Shown here: positions 2,080 through 11,663 of the stretch, piece after piece | Position numbering within the stretch: the stretch's first letter is position 1 | Layout of the letters: the number at the start of each line of letters is the position of its first letter | IMG/VR virus record: IMGVR_UViG_3300046359_000179 | Location: 1-11,943 of that record | DNA: 11,943 nt | Strand: one strand, 5' to 3' | Source of the DNA: a virus | Taxonomy: Duplodnaviria > Heunggongvirae > Uroviricota > Caudoviricetes | Translations under genes and position numbers: made by a program | Notes under the pieces: model-generated | The model's database searches: none | Seen by the model: the letters and a program-made list of their open reading frames with translations, nothing else | Told to the model about the DNA's origin: nothing

Positions 2080-2598
2080 TCAAATTCCTAAAACTTTCGC
2101 GACTTGTTCAACCCTAGATCGAACGGGTCCAGTCAAAACATTATACGGTATTTTGTGCGCCTCTAAGTAATCTTCGTAAAATTTTTCTTGCAGCAAGCTA
2201 AACTCTTCAGGACCCCTAGTGCCGTCATTCACAAATGGAAAATCCCGCTTGCATAAAAACACAAAATCATAGTTCCGATTTTCAGCTTGTTCAGTAATTG
2301 ACATATCAACATAATTGTACCATACGTTAGAATAAAACATCGTTACTAACGGAGTAGTATCACAAACCACAAAATCAATACTATTCTCTTTAGCATGAAG
2401 AACCGCTTTATCCTCCATGCGACATTGCACAGAACAAATATGACGCATATCGTCTTTGTTATAAATGTTCCCAATAAACTGGCCAAGAATGCGTCCATAT
2501 TCTTGAACAACGGGGATTTCCAAAGACTGTGAAAGCGCATTTGCAAGAGTTGTCTTCCCAGAAGACTCTCCACCAATAAGAGCGATTTTTAAAGTCAT
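2080..2598 (-). CDS. nadR: NadR-type ribosylnicotinamide kinase (P-loop, AAA_28-like), stand-alone
   Basis: Walker A GGESSGKT, EYGR, CDTTPL and YDFVFL...DFPFVNDGTR are characteristic of the NadR kinase domain. Located next to an NMNAT gene and pnuC. Confidence 0.9.
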   Translation of the reverse strand: MTLKIALIGGESSGKTTLANALSQSLEIPVVQEYGRILGQFIGNIYNKDDMRHICSVQCRMEDKAVLHAKENSIDFVVCDTTPLVTMFYSNVWYNYVDMSITEQAENRNYDFVFLCKRDFPFVNDGTRGPEEFSLLQEKFYEDYLEAHKIPYNVLTGPVRSRVEQVAKVLGI

Positions 2599-3122
2599 AG
2601 TTTGATTTCCGTTTCACAAATTCGAACGTCATTTTTATCAATGACTGCTTTCAACATGATCTTTCTTACATCTGTATGAATGAACTGATGATGTATTGTA
2701 CTGTCATTTCTTAGCAAAGTTGCACTAATGGGAACATTTTTTCGTGCTTTGTCGACTTCAAAATGCTTGACTGGCTTGCCCGATCTTTTTGAAAGATATG
2801 CTGCGAATCCAACGCCATAATCTTCAGATGTAAACACAATATCAGGAAGCATATTTGCAATCTTTGCTATTTGAAAACAGAATTCCCTATGAACATCTTC
2901 TCCCCCAAAGTCGTCGGGTATTCCTTCAGTTGGCATAATTACGGTGGCAGTTGGAAACCGAGATGCTAACATCTTTTTCCTAACACTTGCTGAGAACCCA
3001 AGATCCCTAGAAGTGTAAGAAATGATTAGCAGTTGGTCAACTTTTTCAAGCGCAGTGTTAATCAGCAGCTCGTGGCCAAAGTGCAACGGGCAAAATTTTC
3101 CAACCACCAATCCAATTGTCAT
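2595..3122 (-). CDS. nadR: NadR-type NMN adenylyltransferase (HxGH cytidylyltransferase family), stand-alone
   Basis: GLVVGKFCPLHFGH (HxGH), VFTSEDYG and the C-terminal ISAT.LR motif. ATGA overlaps on both sides. Confidence 0.9.
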   Translation of the reverse strand: MTIGLVVGKFCPLHFGHELLINTALEKVDQLLIISYTSRDLGFSASVRKKMLASRFPTATVIMPTEGIPDDFGGEDVHREFCFQIAKIANMLPDIVFTSEDYGVGFAAYLSKRSGKPVKHFEVDKARKNVPISATLLRNDSTIHHQFIHTDVRKIMLKAVIDKNDVRICETEIKL

Positions 3123-3553
3123 TTTACTTCTGCGCCCAAGAGTTCAGATTTAACAGACCCGTCATCATTGACATACACTGTATCGTTTAGATTTAAACCT
3201 CTTACCCCAGTCTCAAATTTAAAAGTAAATGCTTTTCCAGCGTGGATGACCCTGCTCGTGTGGCCCGAAGCTTGCGCAGAATACGAACCCGGGTTAAGTT
3301 TGGTCTCAACGGTTTCAGGCTCTTTAGCTTCTTGCGAAACTGGCTTTCCCAAGACTTTTGAACGAACCGAACCATCACCATCAACAGTAATGGCGTCAGG
3401 TACATTAAAACCCTTGACATAATTTTCGAATTTAAATACGAATGTTTTATCCCGATAGACAACTCGACTTTCGTTGCCTGATGCAATTGCGGGGTAAGTC
3501 CCAACTTGAAGGTTATCGCCGTTAAGTGATGATAATAAATTATACACGTTCAT
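3119..3553 (-). CDS. Unknown 144-aa protein made of two ~59-aa beta-rich repeats
   Basis: ATG at 3553 has GGAG 7 nt upstream; the track's extension to 3673 overlaps pnuC by about 130 nt and is unlikely. The internal repeats align at 29/59 identity by hand. Confidence 0.85.
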   Translation of the reverse strand: MNVYNLLSSLNGDNLQVGTYPAIASGNESRVVYRDKTFVFKFENYVKGFNVPDAITVDGDGSVRSKVLGKPVSQEAKEPETVETKLNPGSYSAQASGHTSRVIHAGKAFTFKFETGVRGLNLNDTVYVNDDGSVKSELLGAEVK

Positions 3554-4160
3554 TGTTTTGCTCCGTAATAATGATTTTCCATTTGTGCCATGCCCACCAA
3601 GCATGAACCCAAAATGCTGTGTACATGATTGCAGTAGGATACAATTCTCGACTCCAATAAAGGGGAACTGCAACAGTGTTTACCAGGATCCAGAATGGCC
3701 AGTTTTCAAGTTTTCGGCGCATTAGGAGTAATTGTGCAACAACGCTAAATGTCAACACTAAACTGTCAACAAATGGTGCATAAGCCGTAGTAAATGTCTT
3801 TAGAAGTACGCCATAACAGATCGCAACAGATACTGCGCCAATAAACATGATCAGAGAAGATTTAGTCGTGGCTTTAGAAATCTTCTCGCTTGGTTCAATG
3901 AATGAAACCTTCCAATCAGGATTGGCCCAGCTGTACCAACCAATAAACCCTGTTAGTACAAAGAACATTTGCAACGACACGTCTGCAAAGAGGTTGAACT
4001 GATAAAACAGCATAGCATACAATATCGTGCCGATAATCCCAATCCACCAAGAATGGACACTGTTACGACCGGCTAAAAATACGCAGAGAACAGTTGCAAA
4101 AATTGCAGACCATTCAAGCCCGCTTACGTTCAAAAAAGCAGTAAAAATTTGATCAAACAT
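3540..4160 (-). CDS. pnuC: Nicotinamide riboside transporter PnuC (206 aa)
   Basis: Multiple transmembrane segments with LEW.A, W.IGIIG, LQ.FF...GFIGWY.W, DSLVLTFSVVAQLLL.RRKLENW.FWILVN motifs. ATG at 4160 is preceded by GAGGA. Confidence 0.95.
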   Translation of the reverse strand: MFDQIFTAFLNVSGLEWSAIFATVLCVFLAGRNSVHSWWIGIIGTILYAMLFYQFNLFADVSLQMFFVLTGFIGWYSWANPDWKVSFIEPSEKISKATTKSSLIMFIGAVSVAICYGVLLKTFTTAYAPFVDSLVLTFSVVAQLLLMRRKLENWPFWILVNTVAVPLYWSRELYPTAIMYTAFWVHAWWAWHKWKIIITEQNNERV

Positions 4161-4175
4161 AAAATTCCTCACAGT

Positions 4176-4344
4176 TCAAAATTGATTTATCAACCCGTAG
4201 ATCCGGGCAAAAAGGCATCCTATTGGCCTATTGGCCTATTGTTCGATCCAATGCCCCAATTACGTCATGTAAAGGCGTGAAATTGCAAATTGCTGATAAG
4301 GCAACCCAGCGAACAACGCCATCAACATAATTGTCGAGTGACAC
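4176..4344 (-). pseudogene. Possible small ORF (GTG start) truncated by the 8-bp repeat
   Basis: AGGGGA SD lies 9 nt before the GTG at 4344. The frame is open for 38 codons to a TAG inside the repeat (4228-4230). With one repeat copy it would give 50 aa ending at TGA 4176-4178, 15 nt before the pnuC ATG. An alternative 28-aa ORF from ATG 4346 shares the SD. Confidence 0.35.
4219..4241. repeat. 8-bp tandem repeat x3 (cctattgg; third copy 7/8)
   Basis: cctattgg cctattgg cctattg read directly. Confidence 0.9.
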
Positions 4345-4350
4345 ATGTAA

Positions 4351-4390
4351 AAATCCCCTGAAATGTATTGTACTACAAATTCAGGGATTT
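4351..4390 (-). terminator. Imperfect hairpin, terminator-like, after the 127-aa gene; overlaps a -10-like motif and an SD
   Basis: Minus strand: aaatccctgaa-tt-tgta-gtacaa-taca-t-ttcaggggattt-tt. One bulged G and a short U tail. Confidence 0.5.
4367..4382 (-). promoter_or_regulatory. Putative promoter for the pnuC cassette (gaatttgtagTACAAT)
   Basis: 14/16 identical to the motif at 6848-6863 and 13/16 to that at 398-413. Confidence 0.5.
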
Positions 4391-4407: not shown

Positions 4408-4791
4408 TTACAGCATTTTTTCCAGTTCCTCGATGCTCATATCTGCCAGTGCAGCATCCTTTTTATTCTGGATCAATTCCATGATGCGCTGTTTCTTAGC
4501 AGCAGTTTCACGTGCTGCATCCCGAATATTCTTTTCTTCGAGCTTAACCGCAATGATGTGCTTAACAACTTCGATTTGAGCTTCTAGAAGACTGTTGCTT
4601 TCGGTTTTGACTTCAACAAAAGAGGGTACGCTGCTAGCTTGGATTTCCTTGTGAAGTTGGCGAGCAACCCCATCTAGAGAAACGCCTGTGCTAGAAGTCA
4701 GCGGAAGTGCCCACAGATCTTCGGTAGTGATAAGACCTATTTTCGACGAAAAACGGAAACCTTGGCGAGTTGCTTGTTCAAAAATGTTCAT
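4408..4791 (-). CDS. Conserved helical/coiled-coil phage protein (127 aa), partner of the upstream 670-aa gene
   Basis: AAGGA SD. 'MNIFEQA.R..FRF.S..G..T.EDLW.LPL' N-terminus and a charged helical C-terminus (KKQRIMELIQNKKD...S.EEL). Confidence 0.9.
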   Translation of the reverse strand: MNIFEQATRQGFRFSSKIGLITTEDLWALPLTSSTGVSLDGVARQLHKEIQASSVPSFVEVKTESNSLLEAQIEVVKHIIAVKLEEKNIRDAARETAAKKQRIMELIQNKKDAALADMSIEELEKML

Positions 4792-4807
4792 GACTTTTCC
4801 TTTAAAA

Positions 4808-6820
4808 TTAAAAAACGATGTTAATAACGCGTGCAGTTTTACCAGTTACCCGGCATACTACCTTATTTTCAACTGTACTGGAGAATCCAACTCCGCTCAA
4901 TTGATCCTTCGTGAAGCTTGGCTTATTCTTACTTGCCAAAAGTTCAAATACTTTGCGGTGTGCATCCAAATCGCTGCGCAAGAATTCATTATAAAAGCCT
5001 CGCGAGGTTTCGTCATTCTCGCAGCCCTCAAGCATAAAGAAGTAATGTTTATTACCGACCTGTTGCTGCCAATAATTCGGTGACAACATCATTGCGTGAA
5101 CCTTCACAAATTCATTCGTTGAGATGCCCCAAACAGTTTGTTTCTTTGCAACACCTTTTGACCCCTCAATATCAATATTGCCTTTACCGTCAGAAGTCAG
5201 GATCGCAACTTCGGTATTGATTCCGCTTCGACCATTATCTTGAAATTCAAAAGAGTGAATTGTCCCCAGAATCTGAATCTGAACGGTAAATCCTTTATTG
5301 GTTTCCTCTCGGCGCGACCACTGATTTACGTACAGACGATATTTTCCGGCCTTCATAGTCTTGGCGTTTGAGAAGAAAATATTTTCAACTGGTTGACGCG
5401 TAGTTCCGAATGCAGCATTCATGTCGATGTCTAGTTTACCGCCCGAACGGGCGGTACGAGTGCGGAATGAAATTTCATTACCACATGGGCAGATCAAATG
5501 CAAATCCAAATCATCATAATTAGACCAAGCCAAACGGCAGCAAACGTCTGCATCTACGTTGCCTCCTGCGGCTTTCACACGTTCCTTGATGGCATCAGCA
5601 GTTTCGCCGCGATAAGACCAGCTAAAGTTGTTGTCCCATTTGAAAATTCGCTCTGCAGTTGCATCGTCCGCTGTCACCAAGCTAACCATTTGATTGGCGT
5701 GCTTATTATCTAGCAGCAACTCAATAGAAGTTGCTGTTGGCAGGTACTCGGCAATAAACTTTTCGATAGGTACGTCTTGTAATTTGTCCAGCTTTTTAGG
5801 AGCCGAAGAAGCCGTTGCTGACAAGTCTGCAAACACACTACCAGACAAATCAGCTTTAATAGAGCGATCTGCGAACAGCACATCATTAATGGACACATCA
5901 GACAGGGAAGCAAACCGACGACTAAAAGCACTCATTAGCCCAAGTTCTTGAACCTTTTCTTTGGCCTGATTAATCATTTTTTCAGTTACCAAAGCGGTTG
6001 GCCGCTTGTAATTGTGCGGTGCTACCACAGTTTCAAATGCTTTAACAGCAGTCTCGAGATCCATGCCTTTGCTTAGGTTATTCAGCAGGGTTCCAATTGC
6101 GCTGTTGTTAATTCGGGCGACTGCGGCATTGGTGGTAGCAGATTTTTCCCATGAAAACAATTCTTTATTTTCGGCTTTATCAAAAGCTTGTTTCAACGTT
6201 AGGAAGGAAGACACTGCAAACTTCTGTTCAGCTCCACGATATAGCGTATTCTGAGCAATCAGCTCCAATACGGTTTCCAAGGAATCGACTGTAAGCTCTG
6301 TCAAACCACGATGAAATACATGACGAGTAGATTCAAATTCACTCTTTTTAGGACCAATATTCTTTTCCGAAGCCTGCAGGCTTCGTGGAATTGTCAAGTA
6401 AAAGTGATCGTGGGGGATAACTTCATTGCCACCCGCCTTTTCAAAATTGCGTTCAATGCCAAATTTTGGTTCTGCGGTCAAAAACACGCCAGAAATATCA
6501 CATGACCGTACGTAAGCTGCAAGAGCATTTGAAACTTGTTGATATTCTGGTTCGCCTTTGATGAGCGCATCCCAAATTGTATACACTTTACCGTCTTTAA
6601 TGGCAACAGCACCTCCTACTTGGCGAATAACTGCTTTACAGCAATTACAGTCGTGCTCTGTTTTAACTTTGTAAACTGGGTTCGAACCTTCTGGGAAGGA
6701 CGAAAGATATACTTCCCAAATTTTGGTTTTGTCAATATTTGCTTGAAACAGTACTGCTCCATCAGCAGTCATGTCTTTGAATGTTTTAGCAACTGCAGCC
6801 CGAAAGTTTACAAAGTTCAT
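4808..6820 (-). CDS. 670-aa conserved phage protein with N-terminal HDCNCC motif and a YfaP/DUF2135-like domain
   Basis: Strong SD (AAGAGG). EHDCNCC near the N-terminus. The segment LAWSNYDDLDLHLICPCGNEISF...GGKLDIDMN...PVENIFF matches the DLDLH..P.G...GG.LD.D...PENI signature of YfaP/DUF2135. Confidence 0.9.
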   Translation of the reverse strand: MNFVNFRAAVAKTFKDMTADGAVLFQANIDKTKIWEVYLSSFPEGSNPVYKVKTEHDCNCCKAVIRQVGGAVAIKDGKVYTIWDALIKGEPEYQQVSNALAAYVRSCDISGVFLTAEPKFGIERNFEKAGGNEVIPHDHFYLTIPRSLQASEKNIGPKKSEFESTRHVFHRGLTELTVDSLETVLELIAQNTLYRGAEQKFAVSSFLTLKQAFDKAENKELFSWEKSATTNAAVARINNSAIGTLLNNLSKGMDLETAVKAFETVVAPHNYKRPTALVTEKMINQAKEKVQELGLMSAFSRRFASLSDVSINDVLFADRSIKADLSGSVFADLSATASSAPKKLDKLQDVPIEKFIAEYLPTATSIELLLDNKHANQMVSLVTADDATAERIFKWDNNFSWSYRGETADAIKERVKAAGGNVDADVCCRLAWSNYDDLDLHLICPCGNEISFRTRTARSGGKLDIDMNAAFGTTRQPVENIFFSNAKTMKAGKYRLYVNQWSRREETNKGFTVQIQILGTIHSFEFQDNGRSGINTEVAILTSDGKGNIDIEGSKGVAKKQTVWGISTNEFVKVHAMMLSPNYWQQQVGNKHYFFMLEGCENDETSRGFYNEFLRSDLDAHRKVFELLASKNKPSFTKDQLSGVGFSSTVENKVVCRVTGKTARVINIVF

Positions 6821-6847
6821 AAATTACCTCTTAAAGTTTAAAAATTA

Positions 6848-6863
6848 ATTATACAACAAATTC
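6848..6863 (-). promoter_or_regulatory. Putative promoter (gaatttgttgTATAAT) upstream of the 670-aa gene
   Basis: Intergenic, 27 nt upstream of the ATG at 6820. Shares the recurring motif. Confidence 0.55.
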
Positions 6864-6869
6864 TGGATT

Positions 6870-7670
6870 TTACCCAACTATTTTGACAACATCTATTTTT
6901 GCTTCCACTAGCTCAGAAGCCTCTCGCTTGATTCTCTGTGCATTTAAAATCAAAAAGACATTAAAGTCGCCGTAAGTCATAGTGGTAACCAAATTCTTAA
7001 AAGCCTTAGAAACAGCTTGTAGAAGGTGAGACTTTCGGCAAATGCCAAAATCAAAATATCGCTCAAACGCAATAACAGCAGTTTCTTCAACTGCGCAACG
7101 CATTTTATTCTCTGGTGCAGAATCATTCCATAATTTTGAACTAAAGAGCGGAGAATTCAGATTTTCCCTCATTAGTTCATTTGCAGGTCTGTTCGGGTGG
7201 GCAACCATTTCGTGGAGCTTGTCATGATCAATTTTTCGGTTAACTGCATCCACAAAAAATTCATCATTCATTTTATCCATCTTGATCCGCTTTTTAGAAT
7301 GCACTTTTTCCCAATGCGTTCTCAACATCTTCAGTAAAGCATGATCAATTTCTGCTCCGGCGACTTTCATCAAATGGATATGAAACATAGTCTTTTCCCA
7401 CTTGATATCCCAAGCAGCATGAGAAACTTTAAGCGTGAACAAAAAGTTAAGATCTAAAAAGACATCATGCTTGTTATTTTCTAGCATGTATTCAGACGCT
7501 GAACCGAACCACGTGTTTTCCAAGAGAAGTTTGGATGGACAGGGAGAAGGCTGAAAGGGCAGATTTTGGGACATGATGTCAATATCACCAGGCGGTCGAT
7601 TTAAATCGACCCAGTGCGATAAGGCGACAGACCCAATAACTAAAAATTTACGTTCTGGTTTAGGCGTCAT
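6870..7670 (-). CDS. Phage protein with a nucleotidyltransferase-like N-terminal signature (266 aa)
   Basis: VIGSVAL...R.P.DID resembles the pol-beta-fold GS/DxD motif. TLKVSHAAWD.KWEK and FF.DAV.RK.DHD.LH are patterns I recall from phage hypotheticals. The ORF is certain; the function is tentative. Confidence 0.7.
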   Translation of the reverse strand: MTPKPERKFLVIGSVALSHWVDLNRPPGDIDIMSQNLPFQPSPCPSKLLLENTWFGSASEYMLENNKHDVFLDLNFLFTLKVSHAAWDIKWEKTMFHIHLMKVAGAEIDHALLKMLRTHWEKVHSKKRIKMDKMNDEFFVDAVNRKIDHDKLHEMVAHPNRPANELMRENLNSPLFSSKLWNDSAPENKMRCAVEETAVIAFERYFDFGICRKSHLLQAVSKAFKNLVTTMTYGDFNVFLILNAQRIKREASELVEAKIDVVKIVG

Positions 7671-11417: not shown

Positions 11418-11663
11418 TTAATTAACGGACACATTTGGTGAACCTGTTGCAGCAGAATGATTCTTACTATCTTTATCACCGACACGTACAACAGGCTTCC
11501 CATTTGCAAAAACATTTGGTGAACCAGCAACCTTCGAATGATTCTTGTTATCTTTATCACCGACTCGCACAATAGGTTTTCCATTTGCAAAAACATTTGG
11601 AGAACCAGTTACTGCAACCTGATTAGCAGAATCTGTATCTCCGACTCTAACAATTTTTGACAT
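11418..11663 (-). CDS. PAAR-repeat protein (T4 gp5.4-like spike tip), 81 aa
   Basis: Three xxVRVGD...GSPNV repeats (KIVR, PIVR, PVVR) and NGKP turns; size typical of a stand-alone PAAR. Confidence 0.9.
   Translation of the reverse strand: MSKIVRVGDTDSANQVAVTGSPNVFANGKPIVRVGDKDNKNHSKVAGSPNVFANGKPVVRVGDKDSKNHSAATGSPNVSVN
11500..11600. repeat. 81-nt-period internal repeat of the PAAR gene
   Basis: ccatttgcaaaaacatttgg is identical at 11500-11519 and 11581-11600; the 27-aa protein period matches. Confidence 0.9.

Follow-up and report, generated by a model that had tools for sequence, protein, structure and literature searches.

The window analysed here, a stretch of viral DNA of 11,943 nucleotides, was found to contain a two-gene unit encoding a full-length member of the PHROG 1735/Pfam DUF8224 family and its obligate small partner, a PHROG 2018 protein. 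The two genes are passed on together, by descent as well as by transfer, and require no other fixed neighbour. We tentatively regard the pair as a new two-protein, metal-dependent machine acting inside the cell, present in large phages and some bacteria, with an unsolved fold and a possible role in nucleic-acid maintenance or in a Ca2+-gated stress or exclusion system. Few gene pairs of large phages that lack an assigned function are as widespread and as well conserved as this one, which belongs to the core genes of whole phage families employed in therapy and biocontrol (Ackermannviridae, phiCbK-like and Bastille-like phages). Its function, once known, would annotate the pair in hundreds of sequenced phages and might reveal a new biochemical activity; if a new metal-dependent machine is indeed present, a function would be assigned to thousands of phage genes at once. 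New in our study are the sequence homology between the beta domain of the large protein and YfaP, the absence of a recurrent neighbour, the recognition of the N-terminal 400 residues as a superfamily core and the mobile 2.7-kb cassette in Micromonosporaceae.

The large gene, encoding the 670-aa DUF8224 protein (P0001), was located at 4808-6820 on the minus strand, and the partner gene, encoding the 127-aa PHROG 2018 protein (P0002), at 4408-4791 on the same strand. Each was identified by its open reading frame together with a profile match, and both reading frames are real, exactly as given in the initial annotation. The gap between them was 16 nucleotides, and the window genes around the pair formed a minus-strand run. 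A perfect -10 hexamer, TATAAT, was read at 6848-6853 (minus strand) as a promoter-like element. A ribosome-binding site, AAGAGG, was present at about 6827-6832 inside a conserved block at about 6821-6860. The 30 nucleotides around TATAAT were identical in the relative L181, whose proteins are 87% identical, whereas the adjoining upstream coding DNA had diverged; identity kept beside diverged coding DNA argues that the element is functional. The -35 element was weak (TTGGGT), and the consensus promoter scan did not list the site because of this poor -35. The operon was closed by an intrinsic-terminator-like hairpin followed by a U-run at about 4349-4390 on the minus strand (dG -19.5 kcal/mol, z -3.25), which was kept in the relatives L181 and L182. 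The initial annotation had described an own promoter motif at 6848, a downstream hairpin and a self-contained unit between them; all three stood, the first with the caveat of the weak -35. Since the pair is bounded by a conserved promoter-like element and a conserved hairpin, it is self-contained, and the two genes are one transcription unit. Between the terminator and the PnuC-like gene, about 180 non-coding nucleotides (4173-4348) contained three tandem copies of CAATAGG(C/A); this stretch was wholly absent from L181 and L182.

The large protein matched PHROG 1735 with an E value of 3.5e-250, its residues 1-670 aligning to profile positions 2-673, and the partner matched PHROG 2018 with an E value of 2.3e-41. 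The precomputed PF26675 label, named DUF8224, was carried by 120/120 of the P0001 homologues listed; the assignment of P0001 to PF26675 was made through these labels of homologues and not by scoring the model directly. A profile search with P0001 retrieved 8531 cluster representatives (50% identity) at E <= 1e-3. By tblastn, 551 phage records contained the large gene and 409 the small one, the range extending over Ackermannviridae, phiCbK-like, Bacillus, Vibrio, N4-like, cyanobacterial and Cellulophaga phages. The identity of P0001 was 38-51% across the phages of enterobacteria, Caulobacter, Bacillus, Clostridioides and cyanobacteria and the bacterial copies. The pairs SFP_0120/0119 of Salmonella phage SFP10 and gp275/gp276 of Caulobacter phage Ccr5 were collinear full-length matches with the same motifs and the same gene order, large followed by small, as in the window. 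Identity to the described phages was only 43-47%, with otherwise no substantial difference. The window contributes one more, fairly divergent, DUF8224 member.

The bacterial copies were found in different settings: a myxobacterial copy was present among ordinary chromosomal genes, and the Bradyrhizobium copies were present in prophage-like regions. Phages that carry the pair infect hosts of many phyla, and its presence in bacterial chromosomes and prophages is patchy. No fused longer form of the family was found, and the somewhat longer members contained no additional Pfam domain. The local Pfam copy (which does not hold PF26675) and NCBIfam gave nothing for either protein, and a PDB sequence search gave no match for either. 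Searches of the Atlas by feature and by structure yielded nothing beyond the families of the two proteins, and BFVD only uncharacterised relatives. No paper naming DUF8224 or PF26675 was found in the literature, and the PHROG 1735 and 2018 families are uncharacterised. The pair had been put forward as an undescribed system without an assigned function, recurring side by side in diverse large phages. The recurrence was borne out by tblastn and the locus survey, and the homologous families are all uncharacterised; the word undescribed does not hold, the family being already catalogued as Pfam DUF8224/PHROG 1735 and PHROG 2018. Locus L006 (7971-10408) carried the pair in an 876,603-base JGI metagenome contig, where a Pfam match was found in only 2/27 called neighbours; this contig may belong to a virus of very large size or to an unusual organism.

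The linkage of the two genes was surveyed in 80 cellular loci from bacterial and archaeal species genomes, 78 of them with room for the partner, and in 80 IMG/VR viral loci, 77 of them testable for the partner. In all 78 testable cellular loci the partner followed the large gene directly, on the same strand. In the viral set, the partner was on the same strand and no more than 1 kb away at 77/77 loci; it was directly downstream in 71, separated by one gene in 4 and upstream in 2. The proposed co-occurrence of the two genes was thus seen at every testable locus, viral and cellular. Locus L186, from the unpublished genome G326, was set aside and underlies none of the conclusions. No such constancy was found in the surroundings. 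The 150 ORFs that flank 38 non-redundant viral loci included no recurrent neighbour, any one Pfam or PHROG family accounting for at most 3/150. These flanks contained helicases, a ligase, a polymerase, pyrophosphatases, RIIA and similar genes, and structural genes never flanked the pair in this sample.

Upstream of the pair, a 266-aa protein is encoded at 6870-7670 on the minus strand (DUF7275, E 5e-35; PHROG 6944/2141), with a weak similarity to DUF7277 (E 2.7e-4; 22 bits, under the cut-off of 27). It was considered as a third component and rejected, since its phage distribution is different (Vibrio, T4-like, Gordonia and Streptomyces phages) and it is unrelated to the genes that precede the pair in SFP10. 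On the other side, an NAD+ salvage cluster (2080-4172) contained a PnuC-like NMN transporter (3540-4172) and a split NadR-like enzyme, with one ORF (2595-3122) for the NMN adenylyltransferase and another (2080-2598) for the kinase, all on the minus strand. This gene order was common to the close relative L181. A general tie of the pair to NAD+ salvage was rejected, PnuC- or NadR-like genes being found near the pair in 0/80 other viral loci.

Some neighbours are connected with nucleic-acid repair. RtcB was found in the flanks of 2/63 non-redundant viral loci and 1/80 cellular loci. In the prophage-like locus L179 (8607-14003) of Bradyrhizobium sp. Tv2a-2, the order was RtcB, DUF8224, partner, HD_4 and RlaP, which placed the pair in the middle of an RNA-repair cluster. 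RtcB also adjoined the pair in one further viral locus, and Pnk and a DNA ligase were found beside a short form of the large protein in Xanthomonas phage Xoo-sp2. Co-location with RtcB, RlaP, HD, Pnk or ligase was not regular; it was occasional and not defining. A tRNA gene was found within 6 kb of the pair in 21/63 viral loci, and the 92.8-kb genome from which the window comes contained six tRNAs, all more than 10 kb from the pair. Among the tRNA genes of that genome, outside the window (C1:22418-23653, minus strand), was a gene for a 411-aa transposase (PHROG 506, E 1.7e-128).

The structure of the large protein was examined in a full-length model (pLDDT 81, pTM 0.52) and in a model of residues 1-325 (pLDDT 86, pTM 0.76). 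In these models residues 1-325, encoded at 5846-6820 on the minus strand, formed an alpha/beta domain (1-150) and a helical domain (152-300), which accounts for the long helical middle noted in the initial annotation, and they belong to the conserved superfamily core. Next in the model came a disordered linker (residues 326-345) and a mixed region (346-420). The beta sandwich that follows (421-558; 5147-5560, minus strand) is of the YfaP/DUF2135 type and has a TerD-like fold, and the secondary structure of the model showed a C-terminal beta/alpha region (559-670; 4811-5146, minus strand). Residues 559-670 together with 346-420 probably form, in this model, one domain that hosts the inserted beta sandwich. 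No solved fold matched residues 1-325, and P0001 as a whole showed no recognisable fold of a known catalytic or nucleic-acid-binding kind. The Pneumovirus M2-1 core and the filovirus VP30 C-terminal domain scored within the noise of helical domains and showed no sequence similarity, and are leads only. No hydrophobic segment, neither signal peptide nor membrane segment, was found in P0001 or P0002, and both proteins are soluble. Their pI values were 7.6 and 5.7, respectively, and the codon bias of the P0001 gene was unremarkable (ENC rank 26/90).

The N-terminal domain contained the conserved motif H56-D57-C58-N59-C60-C61, with codons at 6638-6655 on the minus strand. Among 33 homologues, D57, C58 and C61 were invariant and H56 and C60 were at least 90% conserved; H139 was also invariant. 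The motif had been proposed earlier as a metal site; its conservation held, and from the sequence conservation HDCNCC together with H139 is probably a Zn-type site, metal binding itself being a prediction. In the beta sandwich, the motifs DDLD (436-439), DxDxN (464-468) and EN (479-480) were invariant. They resemble Ca2+ ligands, and on their pattern a predicted Ca2+ binding is plausible. The CPCG sequence of the same domain (C444 and C446), which had also been pointed out, is not conserved within the family.

The short form mentioned above, a divergent protein of 545 aa in Xoo-sp2, aligned to residues 21-396 of P0001 and kept the HDCNCC motif as HNCNCC, as well as W.H, Y.RPT and RR. It contained no beta sandwich and was not accompanied by a PHROG 2018 partner; the small gene that follows it was compared with PHROG 2018 and rejected as a relative. 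Because the short form aligns to the N-terminal 400 residues and keeps their motifs, the superfamily has its core in these residues; what marks out DUF8224 proper is the beta sandwich, the C-terminus and the partner.

The beta sandwich was described in the initial annotation as a DUF2135/YfaP-like domain, and here the homology to E. coli YfaP was upheld and the Pfam model was not. BLASTP between YfaP and the domain gave an E value of 5e-11 with 29% identity over 89 aa, and hhalign gave a probability of 94.5% (E 8e-8, 79 columns). The two share the motifs W..DLDLH..P.G, GG.LD.D and G.Y.v.V..y. The Pfam DUF2135 model (PF09906) scored 12.3-12.5 bits on P0001, below its gathering cut-off of 22, and gave any match in only 3/33 members of the DUF8224 family. 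The likeness to YfaP is limited to one domain of P0001, at residues of about 421-507. YfaP, itself uncharacterised, belongs to the yfa alpha-2-macroglobulin locus; P0001, unlike it, has neither a signal peptide nor a hydrophobic N-terminus, and no yfaS/T/A/Q or alpha-2-macroglobulin neighbours were found, either in the window or among 160 related loci. The domain also has the TerD beta-sandwich fold, as in K. pneumoniae TerD (PDB 2kxt) and SCO6318 (PDB 2qz7), and this fold is one domain inside a protein of 670 aa. No similarity to TerD was found at the level of sequence, hhalign of the domain profile with 10 actinobacterial TerD proteins giving a probability of 0.3%. Pfam TerD (PF02342) had no match in P0001, and a ter operon context was absent.

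The partner protein contained the conserved N-terminal motif FE.A.R..LRF....G....EDLW.LPL, followed by a helical C-terminal half. It had been called a coiled coil. Its helical nature was supported, with structural neighbours that are hairpin-like, and the coiled coil was weakly supported, the heptad periodicity being weak. The complex prediction for P0001 with P0002 gave an ipSAE of 0.02.

In the comparison with L181, the large gene showed a dN of 0.077, the lowest of eight local genes, with a dN/dS of about 0.03, and the partner gene was next lowest (dN 0.10). On these substitution values, the pair is under strong purifying selection and evolves very slowly. It is nevertheless dispensable in at least one phage lineage. 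In Limestonevirus the pair is lost: Dickeya phage Kamild (L174:3492-3773) contained an N-terminal DUF8224 remnant of 93 aa, adjoining two homing-endonuclease genes, and no partner. This loss shows that basic replication does not need the pair.

In Micromonosporaceae, the pair was found in 39/301 species genomes searched. The cassette (L026-L088, for example L053:9870-12500) showed 88-98% DNA identity between genera, the conserved DNA ended about 130 nucleotides upstream, and beyond it there was no common flanking gene or DNA. Patchy presence, high identity and unshared flanks are together the signature of a recent horizontal spread of a 2.7-kb cassette. Its conserved leader contained GGAAATGCGTTTC and a -10-like box, TAGGAT. 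The conserved upstream region had no Rfam match and thus gave no riboswitch clue.

We tentatively propose that the two proteins form a metal-dependent complex in the cytoplasm and that this complex acts on a universal substrate, for which nucleic acid is the leading candidate. P0001 and P0002 would act jointly as a complex in the cytoplasm of the infected cell. The large subunit would contribute a novel N-terminal core with the predicted Zn-type Cys/His site (H56, C58, C61 and H139) and the invariant Y271, R273 and R301, together with an acidic, Ca2+-type beta sandwich resembling that of YfaP. The complex may perform a catalytic or binding step on the universal substrate, RNA or DNA maintenance being the leading candidate, and the beta sandwich may serve as a metal-dependent regulatory or docking module. 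A step on a universal substrate is favoured because the pair, in the way it evolves, resembles a captured metabolic enzyme and not a host-specific inhibitor, and because it is usually found in the early or replication region. The RtcB, RlaP/HD, Pnk and ligase neighbours and the nearby tRNA genes were counted as hints of nucleic acid. Against such a role, no catalytic or nucleic-acid fold was recognised and RNA-repair neighbours were rare (2/63 viral loci); the near-neutral pI of P0001 also means that it is not obviously a nucleic-acid binder, and the loss in Limestonevirus speaks against a core role.

The initial annotation had suggested host takeover or counter-defence, under which a host immune system would be disabled by the complex, or an immune signal sequestered. 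We consider this rather unlikely, and it seems less likely than a complex acting on a universal substrate. NAD+ salvage genes can counter NAD-depleting defences, and the pair stands beside such genes in the phage of the window and in Ackermannviridae; NAD genes like those of the window were, as described above, missing from the vicinity of all 80 other viral loci. A self-contained accessory operon in the early region, dispensable in Limestonevirus, would suit counter-defence. The very slow evolution (dN/dS 0.03) and the conservation across phyla (38-50% identity) are unlike known anti-defence proteins, copies are present in bacterial chromosomes, and a protein of 670 aa is far above the size of known sponge proteins. 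Neither protein had a match in PADLOC-DB 2.0 (2023 library) at E <= 0.1.

Somewhat less probable again is a Ter-like stress-response or exclusion module of cellular origin, in which a Ca2+-sensing complex would stabilise the infected or stressed cell or keep out competing phages. The TerD-like fold with its conserved acidic loops is consistent with it, canonical ter genes are known from phages, and the patchy, mobile cassette of Micromonosporaceae with its unshared flanks points in the same direction. In whole families of lytic phages, however, the pair is near-universal and not patchy. TerB, TerC and TelA were not neighbours, a vWA-TerF-like protein was found in only 1/150 flanking ORFs, and the missing sequence homology to TerD and the absent PADLOC match also stand against this module. 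It is very improbable that the protein is an abundant structural component or scaffold of the infected cell, or that it belongs to the virion or is ejected: its own promoter, good ribosome-binding sites and terminator would suit abundance, but the codon bias of the large gene is ordinary, structural genes never flank the pair in the sample and the cassette stands alone in bacterial chromosomes.

Elsewhere in the window, an 81-aa protein encoded at 11418-11663 on the minus strand was found to match the PAAR-motif family PHROG 281 (E 1.5e-15). The adjoining ORF of 202 aa was weakly similar to a PHROG of acetyltransferases (phrog_1249, E 1.2e-4).
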